Assembly (NCBI GenBank): GCA_038258905.1
Contig: JBBSPJ010000001.1
Coordinates: 1 to 44,246 of the forward strand
Direction of reading: 5' to 3'
Length of the DNA stretch: 44,246 bases
From: Cytophagales bacterium
Lineage (GTDB): Bacteria; Bacteroidota; Bacteroidia; Cytophagales; Cyclobacteriaceae
Shown: piece after piece, positions 11,739-35,050 of the stretch
How the letters are laid out: each line of letters starts with the position of its first letter
How positions within the stretch are numbered: the stretch's first letter is position 1
Program-made: the position numbers and the translations under genes
The notes under the pieces: model-generated
What the model saw: the letters and a program-made list of their open reading frames with translations, nothing else
Told to the model about the DNA's origin: nothing
The model's database searches: none

Positions 11739-11774
11739 AAAATAAGAAAGCCGTCAGGACCCCTCCCAACGGCT
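11739..11774 (-). terminator. Rho-independent terminator
   Basis: AGCCGTTGGG-AGGGGT-CCTGACGGCT 10-bp stem whose two G-U pairs form only on the minus strand, followed by TTCTTATTTT. Confidence 0.7.
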
Positions 11775-12361: not shown

Positions 12362-12625
12362 TTAACTTCTAAAGATAGTCTTTTTATAAAAATAGTTACC
12401 CATATAAAACTCGTCATAATATGTGCAGTCAAGTCCGATATAGGAATGTTTGGGTTTAAAATCTTTTCTCAGCACAAAAGCACCCAAGTTCTCTTTAGTT
12501 ATATTAGCCTTCATTAAATCAATCTTTTGACAGAAAATATTATTTTCCCTGTTAACTATAGAAACTAATATTATTTGCAGCACTCCACAAATAAAAAATA
12601 TAAAAGAAATAAAGAATTCTAACAT
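12362..12625 (-). CDS. Second immunity-like membrane protein, paralog of 12634-12969, probably C-terminally disrupted
   Basis: RENNIFCQKIDLMKANITKEN versus RERSIFLQKISFMNRRITCEN (12/21 identical); lacks the second TM in frame. Confidence 0.6.
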   Translation of the reverse strand: MLEFFISFIFFICGVLQIILVSIVNRENNIFCQKIDLMKANITKENLGAFVLRKDFKPKHSYIGLDCTYYDEFYMGNYFYKKTIFRS

Positions 12626-12633
12626 TCCTATTT

Positions 12634-12969
12634 TTAGGGTAAAATAGTTGTAACTATAAAAATTAGGGCAGCAAGAACCAGAGATATTCTTATTGTTAAA
12701 ACAATAAGCCTAAATTTCTTTACTACCTCAGCGTAATCTGGATTATCCATATTGGATTCTTTAATTATGACAAAGTCTAGATTATTTTTATAAGTAGGAT
12801 CAAAATTAAGATTTCCAATTTGAAAGGTGCTTTTATTTTCACAAGTAATTCTTCTATTCATAAAGCTAATCTTCTGTAAAAAAATACTTCTTTCTCTTTT
12901 ATAAATAATTAATGAAACTATAAATACAACTATAGAAACATAGGCTAAAATTCCCAGAAATGTATCCAT
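12634..12969 (-). CDS. Putative cognate immunity protein, 111 aa, two TM helices
   Basis: ATG (MDTFLG) 1 bp after the Rhs stop; hydrophobic N- and C-terminal helices; very AT-rich. Confidence 0.7.
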   Translation of the reverse strand: MDTFLGILAYVSIVVFIVSLIIYKRERSIFLQKISFMNRRITCENKSTFQIGNLNFDPTYKNNLDFVIIKESNMDNPDYAEVVKKFRLIVLTIRISLVLAALIFIVTTILP

Positions 12970-12970
12970 A

Positions 12971-15900
12971 TTAGTCTCTTTTAAGTTCAAATCCACTAAA
13001 TATACTAGCATTGATAGAATGCCCTGCTGACAATCCAACATCTTCCTGTGCCCCTAATCTAAAACTGTGAAATCCTAAATGATCAAATTTTATTTTAGCC
13101 TCTAAGCCAGGTGCTCCAATTCCAAACTCAAAATTATTAAAACTGCCATCTGCATTATTTTGTAACTTTATTTTAATGTCTCCGGAAGTTGATTCAAATC
13201 TACCGCCATAGGTTATATATCTAGGGCTATTTGTATTGGCACGCCTGTTGCCATTAATAAATTCATTTAAATCATACTCTACTTTCATAACCTCCACACT
13301 TCCAGCATCAACGCTAAAACCCGACACCCCAATGTCATTAGTAAAATTAGCACCAACTTTATAAGTAAAGTCTACCTTATTTACAATCCCCATTTCCAAA
13401 TTAGTATCCCACCCTGGCCCCCCATCGACTATTAAATGGGATACAGTTTTGCCCGTTGATGTGCTAGTGTAAAATACACCCCACTCCTTTCCATCATAAA
13501 TTACCTCCGAATTTGGAATCAACAGACTTTTAAACCAAGCTGTAGCTTTCCATTTCCAGCCTCCATCAGGATCAATACCATTAACCGGATCATTCCCCAT
13601 CCCCAAGTAAGGACTAGGATATTGCCCGTATGGATCGGTTGACAACCATCTACCAATAACAGGATCATACATCCTTAACTGAAACGCATTCCAATTAGTT
13701 TCTTCATCTTTTTCAGCATATGCACCCTGATAGCCGTGGCGCCAGTATTTGCGCTCTAGCTTTCTACTTTCCATTGCCAAACCAAATGGGTAATTATCAG
13801 TAGCAACTGCAATATTTCCATAGATATGATTAACATCCATGTCGTCAAAATACGCTGTCACGTTCCGCTCGTCCTCATTACTAAAGTAAATATACACAAA
13901 GCCCGGTTTTGTAGTAGTTATTTCAACGGATAATTCTTCAAAAAGGTGGCTAGCCATCGCACTTGTATCTGTGGGGATCCTGGCTTGCTCACTTACCTGG
14001 TCGAAACCAAAATCTATTAAATTAAAGTCGTCATCATATAACAAATAGTTAAGGTATTGCTTCGGCTGGTTTTCGTCCATATCATCCCAAGCTGCTAGTC
14101 CTGCAAAAGATGCCTGGTCAGTTACATCAAATATATTACTGATTCCTTCACCACCTGAAGGAAGACCAAAGGCCGCAGCCAGATAACCAGCTAATAATGG
14201 AATTACATTAGTTTGACTTCCTGTACCGGCTAGGTATTTGGCTTGAATTTTAGCGTGTACTGTATCTCCCGGGAATACCCTTAAGCTAATCCCACCACCA
14301 ATAGGTTGAGCTGCTGCACCATCCAGCACATTATTAATTCGTACTGATCTATTAGCTCCTGGCACTATGCTATCTGAGGTATGATTCAGGTAACTGCCTA
14401 ATGGCAAAGAATTGATTCCACTGAAATACTGGATTTCCTCTGCTACACGCTCATCTTCCATGGTAGCCAGGTAATTTACACTATCTCGTCCGCCAATTAC
14501 AACCCGTACATTACCTAAATGGTCTTTCACCTCATAAAAATAGGATCCGCCTTCCTTTTCTAAATAAGGACGATAAGCACCCAATCTACTTGCACCGTAT
14601 ACCGGGGTTTCATAAACGAAAGGTTCTTCTTCACTTTGTATGGCTTCAACATAAATATTCATTACCGTGCCTGAGGCATCTCTAACATACCAAGTTTTAA
14701 ATTGGGCCTGGTAAGTACTGTCGTATGCTGTTTTGCTCAAACGGAAACCCTTATTGTCATACTGGATATGCATAATAGTGTCTGACTTGGCTTCGCTAGC
14801 ATACACCGTTTCTACCTTGCCTACTACTTCATAGTCAACCACCAGTTTATCAGCACCAGATGTTTGGCTGATCATTTGCCCAATGGCATTGTATTCGTAT
14901 TCGACCATTGTGGTATCACCTTGCATTACCCTGAGCAAGCGGTTGCTCTCTGGCGCATAATCGTAGGTTAAACTATGCAAGGCATTACCATTTTCATCAG
15001 TCCTACTCAGCCCTTTTATATTTCCATTGGCATCATATCCTGTTATGGTAACGTCATATTTGCCTTCATCCATAAAAGTGCCCGCTGGTGTAGTTCCAAA
15101 ATTAGCAGTTTTCAATTGCTGGCGCTGATCATAGCTGTAACTATATGCCTTTTTCTGGCTACCATCTACCGGGCTGTGCCATTCCTGGGCTTGTATGTTA
15201 CCGGTAAATTGAGCCTCGTCAGGAAAATTACTCTGGCTTATACCAGTGGTTGCTATTTGTGCACTGCTATAGTCTTCCGGGTGATAGTTCAAAACCATAC
15301 CAAAGACGTCCTGGCCATCTCCTCCTGGATCTATGTCAGGATTACCTGAATTTATAGCCTTTAACTTGCCATCTACAGTATACAGGTAGTCCATGCCCTG
15401 ATCGGCTTGAACTAAAAAAGCTCTTTTTAATGGTCCGTGCAAATAATAATCATAGCTTGCTTGATGTATTAAATCCTCTTTATTGGTTATTTCTAACTGG
15501 CCATTATAAGAAGGTGCTACTGTTCCACTATACACACTCTCAAGCCTACTATCTTCGTCATATTCATAATAATGATAATACTCATCTTGATTACCTGCCT
15601 GGTAGGCTACTTCTTTCACATTACCCGAAGGGCCATACTGGTAGGTAATAGTTTTTACACCCAGGCTTTTAATATCCTGGACCATTTGTAACAGCCTGCC
15701 CCTTTCATCATATGAATAAAATGTTTTATGTAAAGGGCTTTCTGAATCTGCTACATAATATTCAGAAGCAGAAACCGATCCCATTACGAATGATTGTGGT
15801 TCACTTGATGGATAATCAGACATTGGCTTATCATAATAGCTTTTGTTGATGTATTTTTTAATGCCGCTATTTTCAGGGAAATAACCGGCATTACCATACT

Positions 15901-18316
15901 CATCCAGCAAAGAGATAAGTCCTTCCCCATCAAATGCGTACTGGCCATCTTCTGCTTCAAATTCTCCGCTTTCAACTGGCCTTAGTTGCTTATCATAATG
16001 CGTGTAGCTTAATTTACCTTCAATTTTTTGCTGTGCATTTTGAGAAAATCGGATACGCCCATCTTTGGCATATTTAAATTCTGATCTTCCACCATCTTTT
16101 TCAGTTACAGCAGTGGTAAAACCTTTCCAGTTATATTCATAAGTGGTTTTATCAATGTTCTCAAATGGCACACCGCTCTGATATTGTTTTAATCCATTGG
16201 GTGTAATGTTACATACAACCTGCCCTTTGTTGTTGTAGTATGTGTGGCTTAATAATTCTGGTACTGAACTTATGCCATAATAGGCGCCTATTAGTTGCTG
16301 TCCATCATAATTTTGGTATTGAGCAGCTAACCTCCCTTCAGCATCTCTAGTTTCTATTTTATAAAACTTAGGCTCATCTCCACTTTGTCCTTCAAAACCT
16401 AATTCGTTTTTTCTAATTTCTAAATATTCAACCAATAGAGGATCAGTATTAGCAACCTCCTTTTTCAATTGGGTGGGAACATGCTCGCTTCCTGCCGTGT
16501 AAGCATCTCCAGGTTTTGTTTGACCTATAATTTCGCCAGAACCATCTTCTGTATACAAGGTACGGCTATAGGGGTATCCTGTTGATGCAGTAAGTGGCTC
16601 ATTAATAGAAGAATTGTTACTGCTACCATTATTATTGCTGTAATACCAGCCAAGTGTCCCTGCCTGTGTTTGATCCATACTATTAGGAGCATCCCTCTTC
16701 ACTAAATCAAAATCATCTGCATTATAACCGGAGGCAAAACCTTCCTGATATTCAAAATAAGTAGGGAATACAATTGCACAACCGTCTTCATTTAGCTGAT
16801 TGTTCGAGTTGCTGGTAATAATGGGGGCAGCCATAGTTTGCACCACAGGGCGGTCATATGCATCCCTTATATTTTGAGAAGCTAGGATTACCCCTTTGCT
16901 CAATACTTTACTTTGGCTTTGCAAATGTTGCCCTTTGGTATCATAGTAATTACGGCTTTGTGCTATTTCTTCCCCGTAATCATTATAGGCAGTCATTTGG
17001 GTGTAGTTCATATCCAAATCAGGATCGTTTTCACTAAGCCTTGGAGGTGCATACTCCAATATTAGTTCAGCACCAGTTGTTAAGGTCATACCGGGTTTTA
17101 TAACTACTTGTGAATTTGATTTAACGGTTGCCGCAAAATGCTCTAACACTAAATTTTCAGGGTCATCAAAAGCCTCATAGCCAAATTCAGTAGTCAAATC
17201 CTCTGGAAGATTTACAGGACAAGGTTGCTCAATAGTTATATCTCTGCCTCCAGCAAATATTTTTACAGGTGGTATGGTCAAGCAATAATCGCCAATAGAA
17301 TTGTTTTTGGCAGGTTCAAGCCTGTAACTTCCCAAATCACTATTTACTGTAAACGTAAAATTGCCGCCGTTCTGATCAATCAATATGTCATTGCCGCCAT
17401 CTTGGGACACAGCATAAAAGTTGGTTAATTTTGTAATGCCTGGAAACCTCAATGTATAGGTTTCGCCTGGTTTTACCTGATAACCTTCCTCATAAGTCAC
17501 TAAGCCTGGCCCTATTATTTCAGGCTCAGGATCGGTATCATTAAAACAAGATGGTACCACTTTTACTGTTTTTGATGGACCACCACCTTCAAAATTTAAA
17601 CCAGCATTATCCCTCAATTGAGTAGCAAAAACATAATCCCCAAAAGTCTCAGCTGTACAATTAAGGGTATAAGTTCCTGAATTATCAGTTAAACCACTTA
17701 TACTTTTTTTCTGTTGTCCGTCTAAGGTCACTGTATAATTGATACTACCAATTAACTCCTGCTCTTCAGCAGAAGGTTGAAAGAATAAAGTAACAGTTTT
17801 GGGAAAAGCATCATTTTCATATACTAAATCTTCACCTAACTTGTAATATGCATTATTGGTTAGTTCACCACCAGGATTTACGCCTCTATAAATAATATAC
17901 TTCAACAAAGGCTTCCAATTTTCAGCACTACAGCTTGCAAAAACACCCTTTCCTCTAACTGTTCTTTGCTGAAAAATAGTAACTTCTACTACTCCGGCAA
18001 CTTCAGGGTTGAAAGTAATTTCGAGAGGTACAGTCCAGGAATTATTGTTGCCACTACTCGTCTGAAGATCAAATCCGTTGGAAGGGACTACATCATCAAC
18101 ATCCGTAACCGATTCTAACCTGACGATTGTACCACTGCCACAAACATAAGTAGAATATTGCGCTTGAGGTTGCCCGTCTTCATTAGTATACCGTACCGAA
18201 TTAGTACTTAAACTCTCATACTTTATGAAAGTAGGGATTTCCTGAGCATAGATTTGACTAACTCTTAAGAGAAATACTAAAAAAATTATTATATAAGTTA
18301 TAAATGACTTTTTCAT
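12971..18316 (-). CDS. Rhs/YD-repeat polymorphic toxin (TcC-like) with signal peptide
   Basis: Signal peptide; many YxYD repeats; YEVKDHLGNVRV; core RMYDPVIGRWLSTDP...SPY...NDPVNGIDPDG; about 195-aa C-terminal extension. Confidence 0.93.
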   Translation of the reverse strand: MKKSFITYIIIFLVFLLRVSQIYAQEIPTFIKYESLSTNSVRYTNEDGQPQAQYSTYVCGSGTIVRLESVTDVDDVVPSNGFDLQTSSGNNNSWTVPLEITFNPEVAGVVEVTIFQQRTVRGKGVFASCSAENWKPLLKYIIYRGVNPGGELTNNAYYKLGEDLVYENDAFPKTVTLFFQPSAEEQELIGSINYTVTLDGQQKKSISGLTDNSGTYTLNCTAETFGDYVFATQLRDNAGLNFEGGGPSKTVKVVPSCFNDTDPEPEIIGPGLVTYEEGYQVKPGETYTLRFPGITKLTNFYAVSQDGGNDILIDQNGGNFTFTVNSDLGSYRLEPAKNNSIGDYCLTIPPVKIFAGGRDITIEQPCPVNLPEDLTTEFGYEAFDDPENLVLEHFAATVKSNSQVVIKPGMTLTTGAELILEYAPPRLSENDPDLDMNYTQMTAYNDYGEEIAQSRNYYDTKGQHLQSQSKVLSKGVILASQNIRDAYDRPVVQTMAAPIITSNSNNQLNEDGCAIVFPTYFEYQEGFASGYNADDFDLVKRDAPNSMDQTQAGTLGWYYSNNNGSSNNSSINEPLTASTGYPYSRTLYTEDGSGEIIGQTKPGDAYTAGSEHVPTQLKKEVANTDPLLVEYLEIRKNELGFEGQSGDEPKFYKIETRDAEGRLAAQYQNYDGQQLIGAYYGISSVPELLSHTYYNNKGQVVCNITPNGLKQYQSGVPFENIDKTTYEYNWKGFTTAVTEKDGGRSEFKYAKDGRIRFSQNAQQKIEGKLSYTHYDKQLRPVESGEFEAEDGQYAFDGEGLISLLDEYGNAGYFPENSGIKKYINKSYYDKPMSDYPSSEPQSFVMGSVSASEYYVADSESPLHKTFYSYDERGRLLQMVQDIKSLGVKTITYQYGPSGNVKEVAYQAGNQDEYYHYYEYDEDSRLESVYSGTVAPSYNGQLEITNKEDLIHQASYDYYLHGPLKRAFLVQADQGMDYLYTVDGKLKAINSGNPDIDPGGDGQDVFGMVLNYHPEDYSSAQIATTGISQSNFPDEAQFTGNIQAQEWHSPVDGSQKKAYSYSYDQRQQLKTANFGTTPAGTFMDEGKYDVTITGYDANGNIKGLSRTDENGNALHSLTYDYAPESNRLLRVMQGDTTMVEYEYNAIGQMISQTSGADKLVVDYEVVGKVETVYASEAKSDTIMHIQYDNKGFRLSKTAYDSTYQAQFKTWYVRDASGTVMNIYVEAIQSEEEPFVYETPVYGASRLGAYRPYLEKEGGSYFYEVKDHLGNVRVVIGGRDSVNYLATMEDERVAEEIQYFSGINSLPLGSYLNHTSDSIVPGANRSVRINNVLDGAAAQPIGGGISLRVFPGDTVHAKIQAKYLAGTGSQTNVIPLLAGYLAAAFGLPSGGEGISNIFDVTDQASFAGLAAWDDMDENQPKQYLNYLLYDDDFNLIDFGFDQVSEQARIPTDTSAMASHLFEELSVEITTTKPGFVYIYFSNEDERNVTAYFDDMDVNHIYGNIAVATDNYPFGLAMESRKLERKYWRHGYQGAYAEKDEETNWNAFQLRMYDPVIGRWLSTDPYGQYPSPYLGMGNDPVNGIDPDGGWKWKATAWFKSLLIPNSEVIYDGKEWGVFYTSTSTGKTVSHLIVDGGPGWDTNLEMGIVNKVDFTYKVGANFTNDIGVSGFSVDAGSVEVMKVEYDLNEFINGNRRANTNSPRYITYGGRFESTSGDIKIKLQNNADGSFNNFEFGIGAPGLEAKIKFDHLGFHSFRLGAQEDVGLSAGHSINASIFSGFELKRD

Positions 18317-21300
18317 TTTTCAAGGTTGTTTTTCGCATAATTATAAACCATTTCACTTATTGTCCTATCTACCGGATAGAAGAATTCCTTATAGGTACGG
18401 ACAAGTTTACCTGAATTATCGTACTCAAAGCGGGTATAAAGATTATCCTTATCTAAAATATGGGTAATTTCATTGCTAAACTGATCATAGACATAGCTAA
18501 CTATTGGAGAATGAATAGGGTGAATTCTAAAATCATCCATGTATACAGCCCTAATTGCATCATTAAATGTTCCAATACGAAGTTCCTGTGTACCCTCAGG
18601 GATAGAAATATCAATGTTTAATAAATACCAACTTTTCGACTTTTGTCTTTGTAATACAGGACTATTGGCTGCTATAATTTGACCATCAGCTTCTGCATAA
18701 AGACTCACTCTTTCCATTTCTGACGCACTTTCAGCATCACCCGGTAAGTAGACCCAAACACTTGCCCTGAAATCTTGTGAAAAATCCGCTTCATTGGAAT
18801 TCATGGTATATGAAAAGCCTTCATTTCCAATTGGAATAAGCAAGCTATAAGTACCCGTATGAGATCTTGCAGTAGAAACATTTCCTTGATTTCTATTGAT
18901 TCCGTTTTCCTCAAAATCATTCCCGTCAAAATATTCAGCACCACTGCTCGTAACTTCATAATAATTAGCATTAACGGCACTTAAAGTAGTTTGACATTGA
19001 CCCGGATCTTTTTTGGCTACTGCAAACCGGCCGTTCATATCCTTTTGTTCTAAAATATGAGAATAAACATCAATAAGTGTTATCTCGCTTTGTTTTTCCC
19101 ACAATCCATTGTTTTCTGAAACTGCGTAATCAAAAGGGTTAGCTACAAAATCATTTATAGGATATGTTCCATCAGCTTGCAGTTGAGCTTGTCCGTTCCA
19201 TGAATAAGTGGATTTTTTACGGTAAATACCCTCCTGTACCCCTTCATTTAAAATAGGAATTTGATTAGACCAAACAGTTCGTTGGGCCGAAAGTAATCCT
19301 AATTTATCAATGTTTTCACTAAGAATAGGCAAGGTATCATTATCTATTCTGACTCTAAAAACGTCCATAGCAGCTAACTGGGTCAACATATTTTTACCTC
19401 CATACATAGACAGTCCTAAACTATCTTCGTATTCTCTAAGCTGGTACGCAGGTAGGCTCTCGTTCAAGAAATAACTACCATAACTATCTTTACTGATTGT
19501 CTTAAGAACCTGCCCACTAAACCAGTCGAAAGCCATATTCCAATTTTCTGAAACAAGGTTTCTTTTATGGTCGGTAGTACGCTGACCCAACATAATATTA
19601 GGGTATTCTACCTTTTGGCTAAAAGAAAGTAAATCCTGCATATTACCTTTTTCATTTTTAAAGGTTCTAAATTCATGAAATGCCTGACTTATTTTTCCCT
19701 GATTATTAAAATGTCTATCAAGAGCCTCATCAAATTCATCTCCTCTATTAAAAAAATCATGTAGGTAGATGTATTCATTCTCAGTTAACAATTGATTTTG
19801 AGCTCCATAAAATCGAACAGCCTTCAAATTTCCAACCTGCACAGAATAATTCTTAAAAGTGATAGGGTACTGGATCCGAGTATCGTTAGGAACTGTAATT
19901 TCTACAGAACTCATTTCGCTACATTCGCGCAAAGCCTCAAAGCAAGAAACACCATTACAGTATTCATAATCTCCCTGCTGTCCATCACATGTGCTTCTAA
20001 TCGATTCGCATTCTGGCAATGTACAGGTATAACTTCGGTCATCAGTTCTGAATTCTCCATTTAGTCTTTGCACCATAGATGAATCAAAAACTTGAAAATC
20101 ATATTCAATCCTACCTGGGATAGCTACACCATTAACCTCTTCAGTAACTGAAACATTTTGATAAGTGACTCCGGGAGAGGGTAACTCATTTGCCATCCCA
20201 TAAATTGAGCTATATGAATTAGAAATAAATTCAATCAAATCCCTTTTAGATCTGATAGGTGTCGCTACATCTAAATACTGAGGGTTAATTTTATAGTCAA
20301 TATTCTGTGATTCAAAGCTTGTTACACCATTTTTATAACTGTATTTTGTAGCATTTTTGGTTCCAGTAAATGCATTATTCAAACTGATTTCCCTAACTCT
20401 AATACGACCACCACCGATCTCTTTTCCATTATTCAGATAAAGCAATCCTCCTACAATGTAGTCAGGCCAATTATTTGGCACATTAAATTTCACCTTTTCT
20501 AAACCTATTACACCGCAATAATTATCATCTTTATATTCTGGCCAATCGTACCAATATGTACTTTCTGACAAAGGATCGACAGTATTATTTATTTTAAAAA
20601 AAACTTTATTGTTAGAATCATCAATTTGATGTAATTCTAGATTTTCTAAAGAAATGTTTTTAGGCCCAAAGACTCTATTAATTCCGCATTCCAGAATATA
20701 ATCTTTAATATCACTTACACCTTTAGATGGAATTGATTCGATAACTCTGTCAGTAAACAAACGAAAAGATGCATGAATATCGAGATCATGATATTCACCA
20801 ACTTTAATATAATCGCTAAGTTTTTGTCCAGTAGAAAATAATTCTACCTCTAAGTAATTATTTGAATTAATTTTTGCGTCTTTAACTGAGAAGAACGGTT
20901 TTTTATTTAAAATGCTAACCATTGAATCGGTTTCATATTCGATATTTATTTGACTACTTAAAGCCGTTTTTATTGTTCTCAGCGAAAAAACATCTTTATT
21001 TTTAGCAGATATAAGCGTCACATATTTTGATTCATCAACATTGTTTGAAGAATTTCTGTGATAATCAGACTTAAACATATTCCAGTTGTCGTATGCATCT
21101 TTATCGAAAGGGGGGTTTTTTGTTTTATAAACTGTCTTGAAAGCTCCATTTAAAGGAAAAATCAAAGATAACCCTGCCTGTGAATTCAAATAATGCAATT
21201 TAAAAATGTTTCCATTTTTTTCCATAATAGTTGCATAAACCTGCCTAATATTACCTTGTAATGTCTTTTCAAACTTAATAATATCTCCTAATGCAAGCTT

Positions 21301-23673: not shown

Positions 23674-23711
23674 GGTCTTGGCATTAATTCAGAAGTATAA
23701 TATAAGTTCTT

Positions 23712-24344
23712 TTAAATATCTTTTAATAAAAACTCTCTCTTAAAAATCATATTTTTAAATTCAAATACGTACTCCTCCATACCTTCCAGTAGGGGTTGTA
23801 CCTTAATTATAACAGCTCCGCTATATTTGTCTAATTTTTCGAATACCATCAACACTTCATCACTTTTTGCCAAGCCATAGAAATTTTCATATCTGTAATC
23901 CGATAATTCTATAGATCTATTTTCTATGGTAAGGTCAACAAATGAATTTAACCTGAATGATAAATTCTGCAATAAGCTGGAGTATTGACCCCTTCCTAAT
24001 TTATTTTTATTTAACAATGCTTCACCTGCATGAGAAATAGATAATTGAAAATAGCTATACTTACCATAAAAATTTTGCAACGAGTCTCTTTGCTTGATAA
24101 AAGAGGCTTTGTCTAAATTATGGTCAATATATTTATCTACCCAGTAGGAAGTTGGCAGATAAGTGACAGTCATTTTAATTCCATCTTCTTCCTCAATCTT
24201 TGTATATCCACTTGCTTCACTATGGATATATTCTACCAAAGCTTCACCGTTCTCAAATTCAAGATTCTCAGAAGTGCAAGAATATAGTAGCAGCAAAAAT
24301 CCTGGTACTACTGATAAAAAGGCTGTCAAATTATGGCATTTCAT
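23712..24344 (-). CDS. Lipoprotein of unknown function
   Basis: Lipobox LLYSC followed by acidic residues; operonic between skp and the YD gene. Confidence 0.7.
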   Translation of the reverse strand: MKCHNLTAFLSVVPGFLLLLYSCTSENLEFENGEALVEYIHSEASGYTKIEEEDGIKMTVTYLPTSYWVDKYIDHNLDKASFIKQRDSLQNFYGKYSYFQLSISHAGEALLNKNKLGRGQYSSLLQNLSFRLNSFVDLTIENRSIELSDYRYENFYGLAKSDEVLMVFEKLDKYSGAVIIKVQPLLEGMEEYVFEFKNMIFKREFLLKDI

Positions 24345-24354
24345 ACTACTATCA

Positions 24355-24879
24355 TTACTGTTGAAGCCTCTTCAAGATGTCCTCTGTAACATCAAGCTCT
24401 TCTTTGGCAAATGCTAAATTTCCCACTTGCGTTGCACCCAAGATCACATCAAATCCCTCATCATTCGCAAATTCTGTAATGACCTTATTTATTTTTTGAG
24501 AAACCTCTGCATTCAATTTACTTTCCTCTTCCTGAGCTTTTTGATTTATAGCTTGCTGATATTGTTGCAGTTCAGTGATTTTTCTGGTGATTAATTCTTC
24601 AGTTAACTGACGTTCCCTTTGACTAATTTTTTCTTTATCATCCATCAATTTTTTTCGTTCCTTATCAAGTTCGCTGCTTAATGTATCTAAGTTAGCACGC
24701 CACTCGATTTTTCTTTTCTCCATTGTCTCCTTTACCTTTTGCATGCCTTCGTATTTATTTAAAAGCACAGCAGTATCTACATAAGCCACTTTTAGATTTT
24801 TAGAGTTGGACTCATAAATAGCATAGCTGCTTACTAATATGGCTACTATGCTTAGTATCAATGTTAATTTTTTGTTCAT
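24355..24879 (-). CDS. ompH: OmpH/Skp family periplasmic chaperone
   Basis: KVAYVDTAVLL, long coiled coil, I..FA...GFDVILG...LAFA...LDVTEDILKRL. Confidence 0.9.
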   Translation of the reverse strand: MNKKLTLILSIVAILVSSYAIYESNSKNLKVAYVDTAVLLNKYEGMQKVKETMEKRKIEWRANLDTLSSELDKERKKLMDDKEKISQRERQLTEELITRKITELQQYQQAINQKAQEEESKLNAEVSQKINKVITEFANDEGFDVILGATQVGNLAFAKEELDVTEDILKRLQQ

Positions 24880-24884
24880 AAGAA

Positions 24885-25382
24885 TTATTTTACTCGAAAC
24901 GTAATAGTTTCTTCAACACCGTTAAATTCCGTACCCAAGATTAACTCATCTTCAGTCAAACTCACTAAATTCCAAATTTCAGGCTCCAAACCGGACTCTT
25001 CATCTGGGTTTCCAGTAGCATGTTTTATCAACCATGAAAATTTTGTTTCATTTTCTAAAAACTCCCATTCACCAATATAATTGATCAAATCACTACACCC
25101 GCCATTATCATCCGGTGCAGAATAGCTGGTTATTGTGCCATTGTCATGTTCAATAGTTCCATCGGCTGAAAAAGTAAAAGTATTGTCGGCTCGCATTTCG
25201 CCACCTATTCTACATTCTTCAAATTCATCTGATTCATCATAACTAGATTCGGCTTCATACCAATCTTTAGAGCTGCCACCGGTTAACAAATCACTTTTGC
25301 TTAATTCGGCATTGTTTTCATCATCAGGATTACAAGCCATCATTATGCTCATTATTATTACAAGTAAATTCATCTTTTTCAT
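24885..25382 (-). CDS. Lipocalin-like lipoprotein
   Basis: Lipobox MMAC-NPDDE; LLTGGSSKDW...C...DNTFTFSADGT...GEWEF...LTEDELIL. Confidence 0.75.
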   Translation of the reverse strand: MKKMNLLVIIMSIMMACNPDDENNAELSKSDLLTGGSSKDWYEAESSYDESDEFEECRIGGEMRADNTFTFSADGTIEHDNGTITSYSAPDDNGGCSDLINYIGEWEFLENETKFSWLIKHATGNPDEESGLEPEIWNLVSLTEDELILGTEFNGVEETITFRVK

Positions 25383-25483
25383 AAGTTTAATTTTAATTAT
25401 TCAATATTTATTCTTTCTATTAATGGGTTTTCTTTGAATCTTTTTTATTCACATCATCCGCAGTTTGAATAGCATCACCCTCT

Positions 25484-26986
25484 TTATTCTACTGTTTTAA
25501 TTCTTCCACCATTCACCACTTTAACATTTCCAGGTAAACCCTCCGTTATTTTTGTTAGTCTCAATTCTCCGTGAATAGTTAAATCCACACCACTGACCGT
25601 GAGACTAGCCCCTTGATTTTCAACCACAACTTCTATTAAATCACATTCTTCTATCGTGTTTACCGTCACATCTTTTCCTATAATAAAAACTTTGCTTCCG
25701 AGAGAAGGAATTTCGGAGGTTACTTCACCATCTTTTTCCCTTGCCCAAATCGCATCATTCCAGTTGCCATTTCTCACAGCATAAAATTCACCAGCTCGTA
25801 AAGATTTCTTTTTACTATAGATTGTTAAGTCCGGAATTAATTGATTTGTAATTTCACAATAATAATTAGCTGATTCATCAAAAGAACTACCCAGTATCAG
25901 CTTATCATTGTTTTCCGAAGGAATAATCTCTTCGTTTTTATACCATTGATATTGATTTTGGGTACCTTCTACTTCTACAGTAAATACATCCCCCCCCCTT
26001 TCAAAAAAAGTATTTACTGAATCTTGGGAATCGTAAACAATAAAATATGGTTTTGAACTTCCGTCATTGTGAAAAAACGGTTCTAAGTCTCCAAAATCCA
26101 ATTGCATTTGATCAACATATATACCAACATCAGATAGATAAGGATGGAGGTATAAATCACCTACGGAACTCAGATTCGTCAATGCAAAGGAAACAAAATA
26201 CAAGTTCTCAGACTGAGCTAAATTTGGTAGACTTCCTGTAAATGGTGTTCCTACCATACGTAGATTAACTAGCTTTGTCAAATTACCAATTGAGGAAGGC
26301 ATGGAACCAGTAAATAAATTATAGCCTAAGAAAAGATCTGTAAGGTTTGTACAGTAACCAATTGCCTCTGGAAATTGTCCTTCAAATAAATTATCTTCTA
26401 TTTGCAAAACTTCCAACCCCTTCATTTTGGATATATCTGAGGATATTTCTCCACTAAAGGAATTGAAACCTAAGTACATTTCCTTCAAACTATATAAATT
26501 ATAGAATTCGATGGGTATGTTTCCATCAAAATTATTCCCATATATATCAAGGAATTCAAGATTCTGGAGGTTTCCAATAGTGTTAGGTAATTGCCCATTA
26601 AAACTATTGTATCGAAGGCCTAAATATTGTAATCCATGTAAATTTCCTAAGCTCCTAGAAAGATTACCTTCCAGAAAATTATATTCTAACCATAATTCTT
26701 CCAGTGACAACAATTCATATAAACTTTCAGGAATCGATCCTTCCAAATCATTGTATGATAAATCTAGTAAAACTATATCTCCATTTGCTATAGTAACCCC
26801 AAACCATTCATCTAAAGGTTCCTCAGACATCCAGTTTGTATTATCAAACCAAAAATCCCCATTGGTATTATTATACAAATCTTCCAAAGCTTGTCTTTCT
26901 ACTGCATCAGGCACATTTCCTTCTTGTGCAATGGACTGACGGTAAATAAAAAAGGAAATTATCAGAATTATAAATTTCAATTTCAT
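25484..26986 (-). CDS. Exported leucine-rich repeat protein (plant RLK-type LRR) with Ig-like and G8-like C-terminal domains
   Basis: ERQALEDLY...W.GVT cap; about eight 24-aa LxxLxLxxNxxxGxIP repeats; YQWYKN...YYCEITN; GNWNDAIW. Confidence 0.88.
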   Translation of the reverse strand: MKLKFIILIISFFIYRQSIAQEGNVPDAVERQALEDLYNNTNGDFWFDNTNWMSEEPLDEWFGVTIANGDIVLLDLSYNDLEGSIPESLYELLSLEELWLEYNFLEGNLSRSLGNLHGLQYLGLRYNSFNGQLPNTIGNLQNLEFLDIYGNNFDGNIPIEFYNLYSLKEMYLGFNSFSGEISSDISKMKGLEVLQIEDNLFEGQFPEAIGYCTNLTDLFLGYNLFTGSMPSSIGNLTKLVNLRMVGTPFTGSLPNLAQSENLYFVSFALTNLSSVGDLYLHPYLSDVGIYVDQMQLDFGDLEPFFHNDGSSKPYFIVYDSQDSVNTFFERGGDVFTVEVEGTQNQYQWYKNEEIIPSENNDKLILGSSFDESANYYCEITNQLIPDLTIYSKKKSLRAGEFYAVRNGNWNDAIWAREKDGEVTSEIPSLGSKVFIIGKDVTVNTIEECDLIEVVVENQGASLTVSGVDLTIHGELRLTKITEGLPGNVKVVNGGRIKTVE

Positions 26987-26988
26987 AG

Positions 26989-28152
26989 CTATCGTATTTC
27001 TTCAATTATTATATCAGTAACTTTCATCGGACTAATGATTACACTTTGCTTTGATCCTGCCTTTTCCAGTCTACCTCGTCTATCTTTTCCTATCGCCACA
27101 AATTCGTAGGTATTGGGAGGCAAATCAATAAGAAAATTAAAAGATCTGTCCAATTCAAATTCCAATAGTGCCTTAGCGAAATTATTGTTTAATTCAGAAT
27201 CTTTATAGTCCACTTGTTGATAGACGAACATTCTTAATTCTACATATTTTCTAGCAGCTGCAAAACTTCCATTTCCATAACCTGACAGGCATCCTTGATA
27301 AAAATTAGAGTTTTCAGTCACTACTTGCCATCCGTAGTTTGTGTATCCATCTATATTATGGAATTCTTTAGGAATCATTGCGAGTGAATAAAGAGTATTT
27401 CCTGATCTATTGGATAATGCTATATTCGCTTCATCAGTTTTTGAAGATTGAATACCTTGCAACCTTCCCAAGCCTTTGTCTTCATTCCTTCTTATCTGCA
27501 GATTTTCCCCGCTACTCAACAATATTTGAATCTTTAGAGTATCTTCTCCTAAAGTCATTTCCTGCGTAACTTCTGGAAGATAAATGTCGCTAAACTGATT
27601 ACTCGGAGGTATAAAGAAATTTAGATAATCATTCTGGACAATTTGATGATCTCTGTTCTCTATATATATCCATGTATTTGTCCCATCAAAATATGGCCAT
27701 GTACCTTGAATACCACTGAGTGGTTTTATATACTTCTCATAGTCTGAATTATATCCTGTATATGGGAAATACACAAATTCATTTCCTTGACGAGTATAAT
27801 AATCTTCAATCCTACCATTTTTATAGGATGTAAAGTCACCTTTTACTTTGATAATTCGATTAGAAACTACCTCAACCACTGGTATTCCAATCTCATAAAT
27901 AGTTGCCATGGGTATCAAATATCTGGCATTTACAAATTTTAATTTTACACCGTCTTGATAAGCTTCAAAGAAGTCCTGATTATTAATATCACTTAATACA
28001 CAAATATTACTTATAATATGTTGAGGGGAGAAATCAACTTCAGGGGCTTTTCGAATTTCTTCCAATTCTTCATTTTCACAAGACATCACCCCAACAGTAA
28101 GTAATATCAGTAAAAGTCCAAGGATTATGCTTATAAACTTATTAGTAACCAT
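26989..28152 (-). CDS. Lipoprotein sharing an 88-aa C-terminal domain with 28209-29267
   Basis: Lipobox VMSC-ENEE; C-terminal EFELDRSF.FL..LP...AIGKDRR. Confidence 0.75.
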   Translation of the reverse strand: MVTNKFISIILGLLLILLTVGVMSCENEELEEIRKAPEVDFSPQHIISNICVLSDINNQDFFEAYQDGVKLKFVNARYLIPMATIYEIGIPVVEVVSNRIIKVKGDFTSYKNGRIEDYYTRQGNEFVYFPYTGYNSDYEKYIKPLSGIQGTWPYFDGTNTWIYIENRDHQIVQNDYLNFFIPPSNQFSDIYLPEVTQEMTLGEDTLKIQILLSSGENLQIRRNEDKGLGRLQGIQSSKTDEANIALSNRSGNTLYSLAMIPKEFHNIDGYTNYGWQVVTENSNFYQGCLSGYGNGSFAAARKYVELRMFVYQQVDYKDSELNNNFAKALLEFELDRSFNFLIDLPPNTYEFVAIGKDRRGRLEKAGSKQSVIISPMKVTDIIIEEIR

Positions 28153-28208
28153 AGTATTAAATTAATCTGAAACTTCAGTATTAAATTTGTTCAGTATATT
28201 TTTTAGAA

Positions 28209-29267
28209 TCACCTTATATCCTCTACAATTATTGTAGATAATTTTAATGGTTCAATTACAACATCTCGTTTCCATCCCACTTTTTCAAATCTATCTCTTC
28301 TGTCTTTTCCAATAGCGTAAAAATCATAACTTCCACTTGGTAAATTGACTAAAAACCTAAATGAACGATCCAGCTCAAATTCATAAATAGATTTTTTGAA
28401 ACCGGTACTCAATTCTAAATCGTTAAAAATTCCTCTAGGGTAAACTAACATCATTACTTCTTCATATCTACGGGCGCCTGGATAGGATCCTTCAACAGTA
28501 CCTAGTGGAATACTCAAATTAAAATCAGGTTCAAATACATACGCTAAATCATAATCCTTCTTAGTAAATTGAACCTTATCATTTGGAGAACAAGGGCCTT
28601 CAAAATCTCCATGTCTTAAATGAGCTTCTACTGCCGAAATACCGATTTTCAGGCTTTTTCTATTTGATGGGTTACCGGGAGGTAAATGACATACTATACC
28701 TTTATTATAAACTGTATCTATTTTAAAAGACTTGTTTGGATTGAAATTTAATAGAACTGTTGTCTCTCTCCCCCCTATGATCTCAATAGTATCTTCTCTA
28801 CAGAATGTGTTCTCTCTTGAGTATAGCTGTATTAAACTATCGTTTTTGCTTTTTATAAACGAATACCCCTCTGAAAATTCAAGATCTAACTTTTTATATT
28901 TTTCGGGTAATGACTTTATTCTTACACCAATACAGATTGTGTTATATAAACCCGTATCGAGTATATGTTTGCCAAGATATATTCCGGAATCCAAAAGATT
29001 AATAGGTGCTAAAGTCTCCGAGCTAAATGTATACGATTCAACGTTGTCGCCACTTAATGTTATTTCATCGATTATCACAGAAACATCTGTAATACTATCG
29101 TGAAACCATTCTACACTGGATAAATATAATTCAACTGCTCCTTCATCTGAAGGAATTGAAACATTCTCAAACTCACTTTCATTACATCCAACAGCAAGCA
29201 ATCCTAACAAAACGAAGCATAACTGTACGCTTCTGATTGTAATAAAACCCGATAAAATTTTTTCCAT
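28209..29267 (-). CDS. DUF4382-like lipoprotein with inserted CHxPPGNP...AHLxHGD module
   Basis: Lipobox AVGC-NESE; V.V.IDEI...INLLD....LG...L..G.Y..I and LLNFNP.KS resemble DUF4382. Confidence 0.65.
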   Translation of the reverse strand: MEKILSGFITIRSVQLCFVLLGLLAVGCNESEFENVSIPSDEGAVELYLSSVEWFHDSITDVSVIIDEITLSGDNVESYTFSSETLAPINLLDSGIYLGKHILDTGLYNTICIGVRIKSLPEKYKKLDLEFSEGYSFIKSKNDSLIQLYSRENTFCREDTIEIIGGRETTVLLNFNPNKSFKIDTVYNKGIVCHLPPGNPSNRKSLKIGISAVEAHLRHGDFEGPCSPNDKVQFTKKDYDLAYVFEPDFNLSIPLGTVEGSYPGARRYEEVMMLVYPRGIFNDLELSTGFKKSIYEFELDRSFRFLVNLPSGSYDFYAIGKDRRDRFEKVGWKRDVVIEPLKLSTIIVEDIR

Positions 29268-29275
29268 CTATGTAT

Positions 29276-30631
29276 TTATTTATTTATAGCTTCTTTCTTT
29301 TTTCCTTTAATTTCAAAACCTATCCGATAAATCAATCTGTTGGGGCTATTCCAAAAACTATCCTCGTCAAGGAAATTATACAGTAACTGCATATTGCCAT
29401 TAACATTTTTACTAATTCTAAATTTCATCATTAATCCACCTAACAGATTGTTATCAACTTGATAATTAAGGTGCTCTTCTATGGGTGTCTTTCTCAAAGT
29501 TTCATATTCAGCATGTAAGTAAATGTTCTTAAAAAGTGCAAAATCTGAAAAGAAACGGCCTCCGTAAACCTCATTTTCTCTAGTTAAAAAATTCTTGCTA
29601 TTCGTATCAATGCCTACTCTATAGGTTGCACCTAATCCTAAAGCAAGCTTAGGAAAAACTAAATAAGAGACTTGAGGAGAAATATCCACTCCAAAGGGAT
29701 CTCCTGAATGGATTTGTAAATTTGTTCCAAATATAAACCTTTCAATTGCAGGCTGGTCTTTTAAAGGATTGATAGGTTTGTCCTTTAATTCAGAAAGTGA
29801 TTTGACCTCACTATACTTTTTCTTGTATTTTGAAATTTCTTGTTGTGAATTTTTAATTCTATCATTGAAATCTTCTTGGCTACCCTGATCTTTAAACTTT
29901 TGAAGCTTTTCCCTTAGTTTATTGTCGGTAAAATCGCGTGATTGCTTTGATAGGTAATCTTTTTTGCTGTATCCTTGTAGGTTATCTTTATTTATTACTT
30001 GATCAACGGGACCTTCTTGTGTTGAATTCGACTGATTTTTTAATTCAGTTAATTGATCATTTTTCCCGATTTTGTTTTTTGCTCCTTCATCTACTTTATT
30101 GATTAGCTGTACGCTTTCACTTTTAATTTTCTCTCGAATGGTAGCTGAATCGAATTTTACTTTTTTAAATTTTTGTAACTTTTCAGTGTATTGTCTTTTA
30201 CTTTGCTTAATGGTATTTATTGAATTTTTACCCCTTTCACTGCCCGAGTTTAGGGGTTGGCGTTGATCAGCAATTTCTAGTTTCTTAAGATGGCGTTCAT
30301 AGCGATTATTGAATTTTTCCTTCTCGTTACTTTCAATATCTTTAATTCTATTCTCGTACCCTTTTCTTCTTTCTAATCTTTTATCGGAAATTGTGCTGGA
30401 GATGGATTTACTGGGTTCAGCTTTAATTTTATTTCCAATATTTAAATTTTTAGACTGATTAATTAGCTGACTTTCAACCTTATTGGAGGAATTTCTTATT
30501 ACAATTGAGTCATTATTACTTATGGTGAGAGCACTATCTTTGGAATTTGTGTTTTGATCAGTAGTACTGCTTTGAGCAAAAACAGTATGAAAAGCAAATA
30601 TTAAAAAGTATACAGTTAGGAGAATCTTCAT
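29276..30631 (-). CDS. Exported protein: long Lys-rich coiled coil plus C-terminal outer-membrane beta-barrel
   Basis: Signal peptide (AFHTVFA-Q); last ~150 aa are alternating amphipathic strands (VDISPQVSY, LALGLGATY, YGGRFF, IYLHAEYE, YRIGFEI). Confidence 0.7.
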   Translation of the reverse strand: MKILLTVYFLIFAFHTVFAQSSTTDQNTNSKDSALTISNNDSIVIRNSSNKVESQLINQSKNLNIGNKIKAEPSKSISSTISDKRLERRKGYENRIKDIESNEKEKFNNRYERHLKKLEIADQRQPLNSGSERGKNSINTIKQSKRQYTEKLQKFKKVKFDSATIREKIKSESVQLINKVDEGAKNKIGKNDQLTELKNQSNSTQEGPVDQVINKDNLQGYSKKDYLSKQSRDFTDNKLREKLQKFKDQGSQEDFNDRIKNSQQEISKYKKKYSEVKSLSELKDKPINPLKDQPAIERFIFGTNLQIHSGDPFGVDISPQVSYLVFPKLALGLGATYRVGIDTNSKNFLTRENEVYGGRFFSDFALFKNIYLHAEYETLRKTPIEEHLNYQVDNNLLGGLMMKFRISKNVNGNMQLLYNFLDEDSFWNSPNRLIYRIGFEIKGKKKEAINK

Positions 30632-31054: not shown

Positions 31055-31519
31055 TCATAGGAGACCTTCATCTGCAAAGCTTAGATAGCTTCCTGCGGTT
31101 AGGATGATGTGATCAAGGACTGGAAGATCTAAAAATACCCCGGCAGCTTTTATCTTTGCAGTTAGTTGCAAATCTGCTTGGCTAGGTTGCTTATTGCCAC
31201 TAGGGTGGTTATGGATTAAAATGACACTTGAGGCATTGCATAATAAGGCATGTTGAAATATCACCTTGGGGTCAGCTACGGTTCCGCTTATGCCTCCAAT
31301 AGAGATGACTGTAAAGCCTTGTACATTATTAGCTCTATTTAGGTAAAGACACATAAAAGCTTCTCTAGTTTCGATATCAATGGGATAAATCTTCCTTATG
31401 TAGCTAGCTACATTTTCGGAGCTCGTAACTTTGATGGCGGGTATCTGATTTTTTACATTGTACGTTGCCTGTAATTCTGCAACGACTTTTTTGAATGTTT
31501 TTACTGCATTAGTTTCCAT
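31055..31519 (-). CDS. radC: RadC/JAB-domain protein
   Basis: REAF...LNRAN...ISIGGISGTVADPK...HNHPSG...PSQAD...LDHIIL. Confidence 0.95.
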   Translation of the reverse strand: METNAVKTFKKVVAELQATYNVKNQIPAIKVTSSENVASYIRKIYPIDIETREAFMCLYLNRANNVQGFTVISIGGISGTVADPKVIFQHALLCNASSVILIHNHPSGNKQPSQADLQLTAKIKAAGVFLDLPVLDHIILTAGSYLSFADEGLL

Positions 31520-31535
31520 AATGATTGATTTAAGT

Positions 31536-31698
31536 GAATAAAAATTATGGATATTTTGAAGGCTAACGCAGTGGCTTATTCAGAATAAGCAAATATTGGG
31601 CGGTGCCAGGCTAAAAAGTCCCGGTATTTTCCGGGATGGTTTACGGTGGGTATTTGTATTTCAGAATAAGAGCCTAACTTAATCCAGAATTTGTATTC
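31536..31698. promoter_or_regulatory. Long imperfect stem-loop upstream of radC (ssDNA promoter/ssi-like)
   Basis: Outer arms 31536-31552 and 31682-31698 pair at 15/17; middle arms 31575-31595 and 31651-31670; inner TCCCGG/CCGGGA. Confidence 0.6.
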
Positions 31699-32020
31699 TA
31701 TCCTTCGAGTGCAATTAGACAAAAAAAGAAGAGATTACTACCAAAAAAAGGGAGAGTCATAAAATTTGATGTTCTGTAAAAAATACTTGTGATCAGTAAT
31801 AATTAAGTGAAATTCAAGTATCAACTATATTTAATATGCAGTAGGTTCTGGATTTTAATTCCCATAGAAAATGATTTAACAAACTAAGTTCAGAATCAAA
31901 TTTAAGGTGATTTGATTAGCTCATTCTTTTTTAGGTTCGGCTAGTTATCACTTCTAAAAAAAGATTCTAATTTGATAAAATAATAAAATTTCTGTGCCTT
32001 CGAGATAGAGTTTGGAGCGC

Positions 32021-32051
32021 AAAAAAAGCAACGTTTTTAAAACGTTGCTTT
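32021..32051 (-). terminator. Rho-independent terminator after ssb
   Basis: AAAGCAACGTTT...AAACGTTGCTTT palindrome with a T7 tail on the minus strand. Confidence 0.8.
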
Positions 32052-32069
32052 AATTAGATTTCAGAAGAT

Positions 32070-32381
32070 TTAAAGTACTTTGAAGTTTTCAACTATGATA
32101 TTGGCATTATTGTAAGTATTGCCATCTTTAGTTGAGGTGGAAGTTTCGTAATCGCCTTCAATGTAAAACTGATTGCCTTTTTTAAATACATCGAGTTGCT
32201 TTTCTGAAAATTTGGTGGCAAACATAATGCAATTGTGCCATACTGTTTTTTCAACTTTTTCACCATTTTTGTCTTTGTAGCTTTTGTCTTCAGCCAAAGA
32301 AAAAGTAAGCATTTCTTTTTTGTTTGATGTGTTGTGAACTTTAGCGTCTGCGCCAATGTGTCCTGTTCCGATGGTTTTCAT
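32070..32381 (-). CDS. ssb: Single-stranded DNA-binding protein (short, no acidic tail)
   Basis: GHIGADA...FSLA...YKDKNGEKVEKTVWHNC...KKG...YIEG OB-fold pattern. Confidence 0.92.
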   Translation of the reverse strand: MKTIGTGHIGADAKVHNTSNKKEMLTFSLAEDKSYKDKNGEKVEKTVWHNCIMFATKFSEKQLDVFKKGNQFYIEGDYETSTSTKDGNTYNNANIIVENFKVL

Positions 32382-32416
32382 AATTTTTAAATTTTAGAGT
32401 TAATAATAATTTTATG

Positions 32417-35045: not shown

Positions 35046-35050
35046 AACTA

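Follow-up and report, generated by a model that had tools for sequence, protein, structure and literature searches.

How might a bacterium deliver a two-chain Rhs-type toxin when both chains begin like exported proteins? The question is raised by an operon on contig JBBSPJ010000001.1 of a Cytophagales bacterium (Bacteroidota, Cyclobacteriaceae; GenBank assembly GCA_038258905.1). The stretch analyzed, called the window here, is the entire contig of 44,246 nucleotides. The source assembly is fragmented (4.5 Mb in 580 contigs, 88% complete). The operon occupies 12362–30631 and contains 11 co-oriented open reading frames (ORFs), g1 to g11, all on the minus strand. Four of the 11 genes form a conserved unit: ompH and the genes for a lipoprotein of 210 amino acids (aa), a YD shell protein, and an Rhs toxin. 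The module is apparently a widespread, undescribed variant of the Rhs/Tc-BC polymorphic toxins, with predicted export and pore functions.

Conserved core and its distribution

The core genes, their main parts, and the two genes behind them are as follows.

24355–24879, minus strand: g6, chaperone of the OmpH/Skp type whose N-terminal membrane anchor is probably uncleaved; core gene (PF03938, neighborhood).
23712–24344, minus strand: g7, 210-aa lipoprotein whose family has no name; core gene, best marker, and weakly predicted YD partner (conserved cysteine, complex score).
18313–23673, minus strand: g8, 1786-aa YD protein; core gene (AlphaFold2 model of residues 26–920, fold matches, CBM-like domain).
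22750–23343, minus strand: insert in g8, residues ~111–308; predicted transmembrane beta-barrel (AlphaFold2 model, composition, fold alignment).
12971–18316, minus strand: g9, 1781-aa Rhs protein; core gene (TIGR03696, cleavage motifs).
12971–13561, minus strand: 196-aa C-terminal tip of g9; putative toxin, beta-rich by inspection (position behind the core, no family).
12634–12969, minus strand: g10, 111 aa with two predicted transmembrane helices; putative cognate immunity gene (1 bp past the Rhs stop, hydropathy).
12362–12625, minus strand: g11, 87 aa with one transmembrane helix, paralog of g10; putative second or degenerate immunity gene (30% identity over 84 aa, a score reached in 0/2000 shuffles).

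The first lipoprotein search used the single 210-aa sequence against 400 genomes of the phylum and gave matches in 7. A profile of 11 sequences matched 87 of 400 genomes of the class Bacteroidia at 113 places. It matched none of 10 sampled genomes of the host's family. The 87 carriers include the unpublished genome G481, which was used only in this count and in the count of secretins in the 87 carriers. We read 69 lipoprotein loci, 9 from the single-sequence search and one high-scoring place in each of 60 of the 87 genomes. The YD gene is present in 68, ompH in 62, and a LolA3-family gene (NF053579), typically between YD and Rhs, in 37. The N-terminal part of Rhs is present in 48 of the 69, the stretches read ending at 20 kb.

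An independent search with the YD N terminus retrieved at least 594 loci. The best 80 of these, few of which overlap with the 69, contain the lipoprotein in 69 cases and ompH in 64. Together the two sets make up 149 related loci. The conserved unit is, in order, ompH, lipoprotein, YD, (LolA3), Rhs, and a small variable gene. No LolA3 gene was detected in the source genome at 88% completeness.

The first-pass annotation had proposed ompH and the 210-aa lipoprotein as partners of YD and Rhs, and both are conserved across the related loci. It had also joined all 11 genes into one self-contained apparatus, which the survey did not bear out. It did not mention the predicted barrel in the YD protein, the probable membrane anchor of OmpH, or the LolA3 gene of the related loci. 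Homologs of g2, g3, g5, g10, and g11 are absent from all 149 related loci. The C-terminal domain of g4 was retrieved from 3 of the best 80 YD loci (L139, L148, and L158) and g1 from 2. A longer read of L219 contains homologs of g5 and g1 behind a full core, which gives g5 one further locus. The accessory genes divide in these loci: ompH and the lipoprotein co-occur with YD and Rhs, and g2 and g3 do not.

The co-oriented, tight spacing noted at first pass was confirmed. The gaps from g1 to g11 are 8, 56, 2, 101, 5, 10, 38, −4, 1, and 8 bp. Seven of the ten do not exceed 10 bp, and none is wider than 101 bp. This layout is not due to chance, because the same core order recurs in many families. 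The g10 start is most likely the ATG at 12969, 1 base past the Rhs stop (111 aa), rather than 13041. A sigma-70 promoter scan was near chance (94 versus 82.6) with a consensus unsuited to Bacteroidota promoters. One terminator-like hairpin was found at 11749–11774.

Family scans (Pfam and NCBIfam) covered 34 ORFs of the window. The OmpH label was upheld, g6 passing the Pfam cutoff for PF03938 (E = 1e-25). So was the Rhs label, g9 matching TIGR03696 above the cutoff at residues 1509–1585. As the first-pass annotation stated, no VgrG, PAAR, Hcp, TcA, or TpsB family was matched in the 34 ORFs.

In two related loci (L139:9905-15556 and L085), the YD gene is in several pieces, from either assembly errors or decay.

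YD protein and its insert

The g8 protein contains, in order, a signal peptide, the start of an SpvB/Rhs-type shell, a barrel-like insert, more shell, a CBM4/9-like domain near the C terminus, and a YD end. Both giant proteins have hydrophobic, signal-peptide-like N termini by sequence reading and hydropathy, in agreement with the earlier description. The AlphaFold2 model of residues 26–920 was built with 66 sequences and had a pTM of 0.79. Foldseek matched it to TcdB2 and YenB with prob 1.0, but the TM-score was about 0.2 and the rmsd over 20 Å. VIA-align matched it to an Rhs core (Z 13.8; 220 aa, 3.4 Å), SpvB-N (Z 11.8; 241 aa, 4.0 Å), and the BC chain of a Tc holotoxin (Z 11.6). Searches of the YD sequence against Pfam and PDB gave no TcB match. 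The DUF6531 and SpvB matches among its relatives (11/27 and 1/27, respectively) were all below the cutoff. The TcB-like label given at first pass was thus supported by the fold match but not by the single-protein sequence searches. By fold alone, the modeled YD protein carries an SpvB-type N terminus and a YD shell of the Tc B subunit type. No propeller family was matched in g8 or its relatives, and none was among the fold matches of residues 26–920.

The insert model contains two stem strands of 23–24 residues. The other strands or hairpins, about seven or more, are short, amphipathic, and rich in Gly/Ser. Its composition differs from that of the shell (medians over 34 rows: Gly, 0.18 versus 0.08; charged residues, 0.11 versus 0.23). 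In each of the 66 rows compared, the insert exceeds the shell in hydrophobic/small alternation. The insert aligned to the designed barrel TMB10 (Z 8.9; 108 aa, 2.6 Å), to KdgM (Z 7.5; 113 aa, 3.8 Å), and to the Hbp barrel (Z 6.8; 126 aa, 4.2 Å). It otherwise matched only unnamed Atlas clusters, under 0.9. On the model and its composition, the insert is probably a membrane barrel. It could be a substitute for TcA that is built into the shell protein.

By a composition rule with a fixed window, 110 of 144 YD proteins have the insert. Thirty of the misses are in lipoprotein loci, many near the threshold. The other four are short YD proteins whose loci contain no ompH or lipoprotein. Shells in related loci are decorated with CBM, PKD, or LRR domains, which suggests that the shell faces outward.

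OmpH and the 210-aa lipoprotein

Only 1 of 71 module OmpH family members contains an x-x-A/G-Q cleavage site after the hydrophobic N terminus. The N-terminal anchor of the module OmpH is therefore probably uncleaved, as read from the sequence. Two housekeeping OmpH proteins of the source genome carry the cleavage site. A third looks anchored as well, so the anchor is not unique to the module.

The cysteine of g7 is conserved in at least 90% of 135 family members. The lipoprotein has no shared match to a Pfam, PDB, or named Atlas family, and a metagenome scan with it found no relative. The predicted complex of YD residues 26–825 with the lipoprotein scored 0.38, versus 0.00 for the best control. 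Its contacts agree at 54% or more, and the partner pLDDT is at least 79. Of 157 solved pairs, 116 reach the mark for this score, as do 2 of 215 mismatched pairs; 18 of the 157 solved pairs and both mismatches reach it at 0.60 or below.

Rhs protein, putative toxin tip, and follower genes

The g9 protein contains a signal peptide, a variable N terminus, YD repeats, and an Rhs core that carries the motifs RWLSTDP and DPDG (the latter at 1582–1585). All 25 related Rhs ORFs that are complete and have a DPxG contain both autocleavage motifs. A search of the Rhs sequence against PDB gave no TcC match. The tip matched no Pfam or NCBIfam family. Twenty-three relatives have tips of 192–250 aa, and all 24 tips are without a pairwise BLAST match at E = 1e-3. 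By its core, cleavage motifs, and hypervariable tip, g9 is an Rhs/YD polymorphic toxin; its toxicity is putative.

The first-pass annotation had called g10 and g11 immunity paralogs, and the shuffle test given above confirmed the paralogy. Paralogous membrane proteins in this position suggest a membrane-acting tip in this copy. An ORF lies right behind Rhs in 18 of 23 relatives. The idea that all tips act in the envelope was not supported, as 7 of the 18 follower ORFs look soluble. Tip targets across the relatives are probably mixed.

The source genome contains three more Rhs loci (G000:C125:3488-10918, C277, and C444; L135-L137). One of them has another long g1 immediately ahead of a 2044-aa Rhs gene, and one has a short YD gene with no insert.

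Possible export routes across carriers

A secretin was found in 44 of the 87 carriers and in 17 of 313 noncarriers. It lies within 35 kb of the lipoprotein in 23. The neighbors belonging to a type II secretion system (T2SS) fall into the GspD, GspE, GspF, and pilin types. T2SS as a universal route was rejected, since 43 of the 87 carriers have no secretin. Many of these encode an outer membrane protein (OMP) of ~800 aa with a ~370-aa gene, directly upstream of the core. For scoring, 80 carriers were used (the 87 minus G481 and the six weakest). A secretin alone is present in 37, the long ~800-aa OMP alone in 33, both in 5, and neither in 5. Among 80 sampled noncarriers, 3 have the long OMP and 3 have a secretin. 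Two of the three noncarriers with the long OMP have it beside a YD gene (two were read). The long OMP was separated from a common ~570-aa paralog by a cutoff of E = 1e-30, which was set after the scores were seen. The module thus mostly travels with a T2SS or the ~800-aa OMP. This goes part of the way toward an export that T2SS or a type IX secretion system (T9SS) would explain without the operon's own genes.

The ~800-aa OMP contains an inserted coiled coil and is followed by the ~370-aa gene upstream of the core at L023:10578-14140 and 21 other loci, whose genomes for the most part have no T2SS. The pair matched no Pfam or NCBIfam family. The ~800-aa OMP may itself be a new exporter. In the source genome, a distant paralog of ~563 aa precedes two secreted proteins of 2276 and 689 aa (G000:C21:3334-13939), which we take to be TANFOR/FN3-like. 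Paralogs like this one are present in many genomes.

Neither giant protein matched a T9SS C-terminal sorting domain (CTD) of type A or B at E = 0.01, as the first-pass annotation had noted. The same scans did detect CTDs on neighbor proteins at other loci, and one neighbor of the module has a true type B CTD. A T9SS-tail-like C-terminal domain of ~100 aa ends many unrelated proteins just upstream of ompH (e.g., L023:13028-14140, L079, L093, and L106). The member scanned had no CTD family match, and its profile had no match in the window or source genome. This domain is possibly a new sorting signal.

The source genome encodes SprA. GldN is present in 78 of 80 carriers and in 72 of 72 near-complete ones. 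TssD (Hcp) was found in 1 of 80 carriers and was not found in the source genome.

Proposed mechanism and rival explanations

The YD and Rhs proteins would cross the inner membrane by Sec. The membrane-anchored Skp-like protein and the 210-aa lipoprotein may keep the aggregation-prone, amphipathic insert soluble in the periplasm. Eag chaperones do likewise for the membrane segments of Rhs proteins that belong to a type VI secretion system (T6SS). The lipoprotein may also tether the shell. YD and Rhs would then join into a hollow shell around the self-cleaved 196-aa tip. The complex could be displayed outside through an interchangeable outer membrane partner, either a T2SS or the ~800-aa OMP. 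In the source lineage, g1 may perform this step with a host translocon such as T9SS. Adhesion domains would bind a neighbor cell, and the barrel-like insert would enter its outer membrane as a release channel for the tip. The g10 and g11 proteins may shield the inner membrane against the tip, whose likely targets are membranes. Genes g2 to g5 may be optional surface or adhesion parts.

We consider a two-chain toxin cocoon with immunity very probable. That the insert enters the target rather than the producer is slightly favored. The whole chain, a T6SS-independent, TcA-free polymorphic toxin with a built-in delivery barrel, has about an even chance of being right. A wider version is rather doubtful: a contact-dependent killing system found class-wide in Bacteroidota, in which a cocoon has its own single-chain barrel rather than TcA or a T6SS spike, relies on a dedicated membrane-bound Skp and a lipoprotein, uses interchangeable exits, and is a main T2SS cargo. 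In it, the ~800-aa OMP and g1 would mark two undescribed export or display routes.

Several findings weigh against the delivery mechanism. The pLDDT is under 50 at model residues 173–239, about a third of the insert, and the barrel Z values of 6.8–8.9 are close to the stated noise range of the tool. Nine insert-bearing YD loci have no lipoprotein in the stretch read, some of which end at contig ends. The complex result for the YD–lipoprotein pairing is weak. The ~800-aa OMP loci fall mostly in one clade of the YD tree (124 rows, midpoint root), with 5 changes versus 20.6 when shuffled, so the mutual exclusion of T2SS and OMP rests on few independent events. No secretin, GspE, or long ~800-aa OMP was detected in the source genome at 88% completeness, and its four close relatives (G883-G886) also had no detected secretin or long OMP; three of the four carry the long g1. 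The g1 gene also adjoins YD genes with no insert and lone Rhs genes. A homology of g1 to the ~800-aa OMP was not supported (hhalign probability, 24%). The ORFs behind Rhs (n = 18) look membrane- or lipoprotein-like in 11 cases and soluble in 7; the same crude rule gives a background of 42%.

The main rival has the barrel lodged in the outer membrane of the producer itself. Skp would hand the YD protein to BAM, and the insert would be an anchor or exit pore from which the shell hangs, in a partial, autotransporter-like self-export. The insert does align to porin and autotransporter barrels, and LolA3 and the lipoprotein fit outer membrane assembly. Skp is known for escorting unfolded OMPs. Such a barrel would also explain the carriers with neither T2SS nor the long OMP (the source genome, G883-G886, and 5/80). 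However, the barrel is internal, with about 1480 residues after it and no terminal beta-signal, and has few aromatic girdle residues by inspection. An even-stranded insert would leave both parts of the shell in the periplasm despite the adhesion domains, and a gene for a large translocon persists in 75 of the 80 carriers. We regard this arrangement as unlikely. It is improbable that the host T9SS exports the proteins by means of a sorting tail that is cryptic or borne by a partner. The T2SS and OMP neighbors would then serve other cargo, and the insert would be passive inside the shell. SprA in the source genome and GldN in 78 of 80 carriers agree with this, but T9SS is common in the class, and its presence in carriers is therefore uninformative. 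The CTD-like tails upstream of ompH in many loci and the neighbor with a type B CTD also point this way. Against it are the absence of a CTD match on the giants, that of a tail-profile match among the window proteins, and the secretins, which are enriched in carriers and often close to the lipoprotein.

The shell could instead be mainly a structure for adhesion or recognition, or be aimed at eukaryotes, and g10 and g11 would then not be immunity genes. The CBM, PKD, LRR, and tail-fiber-like neighbors are consistent with this, as are related shells in teneurins and mosquito SGS. In the part of the source consulted, a Cytophaga hutchinsonii T2SS mutant is defective in cellulose use (PMC5553014). 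Against this reading are the intact cleavage motifs in 25 of 25 relatives, the unrelated tips of narrow length, the small variable genes behind them, and orphan Rhs cassettes. A toxin-immunity pattern of such features is described in the consulted part of PMC3482391. This explanation is very improbable. Under the preferred reading, delivery into a neighbor cell, a barrel built into the shell would be a concrete answer to how cargo could be released without T6SS or TcA. A built-in pore, if true, would be a new delivery route.

Relation to known systems

The B and C subunits of Tc (ABC) toxins (TcdB2-TccC3 and YenB-YenC) share with the module the two chains, an SpvB-type start and YD shell fold, the Rhs core, the cleavage motifs, and the variable tip. 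Unlike Tc, the module has signal peptides on both chains, a barrel-like insert, putative immunity genes, and a dedicated Skp and lipoprotein, and has no FG-GAP or propeller family match. TcA was not matched in the 34 window ORFs, and PF03538 was not found in the 88%-complete genome by a search with no positive control.

Rhs effectors of the T6SS (Tse5, RhsA, RhsP, and Tse15) share the shell fold (Z up to 13.8) and a polymorphic tip with an immunity gene, putative in the module. The Tse5 shell delivers its tip to membranes, according to the part of PMC10684867 consulted. Unlike these effectors, the module has two chains with signal peptides, no PAAR, VgrG, or Eag, and TssD in only one of the scored carriers. 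For the source organism, neither the window (no PAAR, VgrG, or Hcp) nor the genome (TssD not found) gave a T6SS link. The one VgrG-like gene of the source genome lies among gpW/baseplate-like neighbors (G000:C15:12442-25252), presumably in an extracellular contractile injection system. The two-partner and autotransporter forms of the type V secretion system do not fit either: no TpsB family was matched, g1 is 8-stranded, and the YD barrel-like segment is internal with no C-terminal translocator.

The toxins of the TcdB/TcaC pathway and the signal-peptide ("T2SS") polymorphic toxins of PMC3482391 also have a signal peptide, an SpvB-like start, RHS repeats, and the toxin-immunity order, and occur in Bacteroidetes, as far as the consulted part of that source goes. 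Its TcdB/TcaC definition includes an integrin-like propeller after SpvB, whereas the module has the SpvB fold with no propeller detected. "T2SS" is there a default class for signal peptides, and the same part mentions no OmpH, lipoprotein, LolA3, or gsp-cluster neighborhood. Bacterial teneurin-like proteins (PMC13018210, in the part consulted) are also Sec-exported surface YD shells with a polymorphic toxin and no obvious delivery machine. They differ in having a single chain, no barrel insert or Skp partner is described there, and "Bacteroid" is absent from the main text. The authors state delivery from such shells without an obvious machine as an open question in that part of the paper.

The gsp gene types that flank the module in many genomes are those of the Bacteroidota T2SS (C. 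hutchinsonii CHU_3195-3199 and F. johnsoniae Fjoh_0611-0616). Neither the T2SS paper nor the LolA3 (Fjoh_0605) paper contains the word "Rhs" in its main text, and the source genome has no detected secretin or LolA3. By locus tags alone, LolA3 of the tractable model F. johnsoniae lies six genes from the T2SS cluster. LolA3 deletion left gliding and amylase secretion unaffected, according to the consulted part of PMC11885536. The module could be a cargo of the Bacteroidota T2SS, a poorly understood system, and could give LolA3 its role.

The module is not a member of the Tc toxins (no TcA), the T6SS effectors, or the T9SS cargo, and is Tc BC/Rhs cocoon-like. It is present in about a fifth of the sampled Bacteroidia genomes, most of which have no T6SS. 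The first-pass annotation had suspected a widespread and undescribed locus. Both points agree with the 87 of 400 genomes and with our literature searches, which found no description of the module, subscription papers and supplements (e.g., the neighborhood tables of PMC3482391) aside.

Accessory genes

The five genes before the core are as follows.

29276–30631, minus strand: g1, 451-aa OMP linked to Rhs/YD genes (AlphaFold2, Foldseek, neighborhood).
28209–29267, minus strand: g2, 352-aa lipoprotein-like protein with a weak DUF4382-like N terminus; variable accessory (0/149 loci).
26989–28152, minus strand: g3, 387-aa lipoprotein-like protein with a C-terminal domain related to that of g2; variable accessory (51% identity over 97 aa, 0/149 loci).
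25484–26986, minus strand: g4, 500 aa with a signal peptide, LRR, weak Ig domain, and C-terminal domain; candidate adhesin (family scan, neighborhood).
24885–25382, minus strand: g5, 165-aa lipoprotein, weakly lipocalin-like (below cutoff, one homolog).

In its AlphaFold2 model, g1 contains a signal peptide, a disordered stretch, long helices at 80–290, and an 8-stranded barrel at 299–442. Foldseek matched the barrel to the Ail/OmpA type. This agrees with the first-pass label of a coiled-coil beta-barrel. The same annotation had counted g1 as the system's own OMP and called the outer membrane export step uncharacterized. We rejected g1 as the export pore for a monomer: eight strands are too narrow for a folded cocoon or a 200-kDa protein. 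Of 16 other loci with the long form of g1, 13 have it next to Rhs or YD, with a full core in L155, L159, and L219. The exceptions are L124, L127, which is a fragment, and L221, which lies at a contig end. The four g1-linked cores in the YD tree all belong to one clade (support 0.995), which also holds T2SS-linked loci. Short, barrel-only relatives are common, and the g1 profile matches 116 of 151 genomes of the order. The g1 protein is a lineage-specific, Rhs/YD-linked OMP and likely either an anchor or an export accessory. We lean slightly toward its taking part in export or anchoring.

L155 is a typical Bacteroidota module with g1 in an assembly labeled Methylomonas, which is probably misbinned. 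A 743-aa open frame at G821:C1:5043819-5045819 matched the g1 barrel profile four times, which suggests tandem small barrels.

The first-pass annotation had called g2 and g3 related lipoproteins. Their relatedness is confined to the C-terminal domain of ~90 aa. Only two full-length homologs of g2 were found. The LRR label of g4 was confirmed by the family scan. The C-terminal domain of g4 is also present on proteins beside YD/Rhs in L139, L148, L158, and L223. The lipocalin label of g5 was only weakly supported, below the cutoff (E = 0.12; E = 7e-4 in the homolog). Its one homolog, in L219, is 33% identical and adjoins g1 behind the full core.

Proteins with a shared coiled-coil C-terminal domain were retrieved from 25 of the best 80 of at least 594 YD loci, with up to six in tandem before ompH (e.g., L011:3336-4445, L181, L154, and L156). 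They are candidate receptor-binding parts, and we take them to be tail-fiber-like.

Mobile-element context

The rest of the window contains the following backbone.

31055–44225, minus strand: conjugative-transposon backbone with traJ, K, M, N, MobC/T4CP, M23 peptidase, DUF4099, ssb, and radC (family scans).

Contig C70 carries another radC-ssb copy, with 89% identity up to window position 31044, a point just beyond radC; other genes come after it. The conjugative element therefore has a variable site, which here holds the operon as cargo. The earlier suggestion of a locus carried by an integrative and conjugative element (ICE) thus held, with the operon sitting after radC. No convincing att repeats were found. 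Only one of the related loci read had a tra gene nearby, so carriage by an ICE is a trait of this copy. The location shows how a weapon plus its immunity genes could spread.

The left-hand genes of the window (231–11293) encode, among others, a NOV_C-domain protein, an ECF sigma factor, and a PLD-domain protein with a weak DrmC match. None was assigned to a defense system, and they are possibly more ICE cargo.

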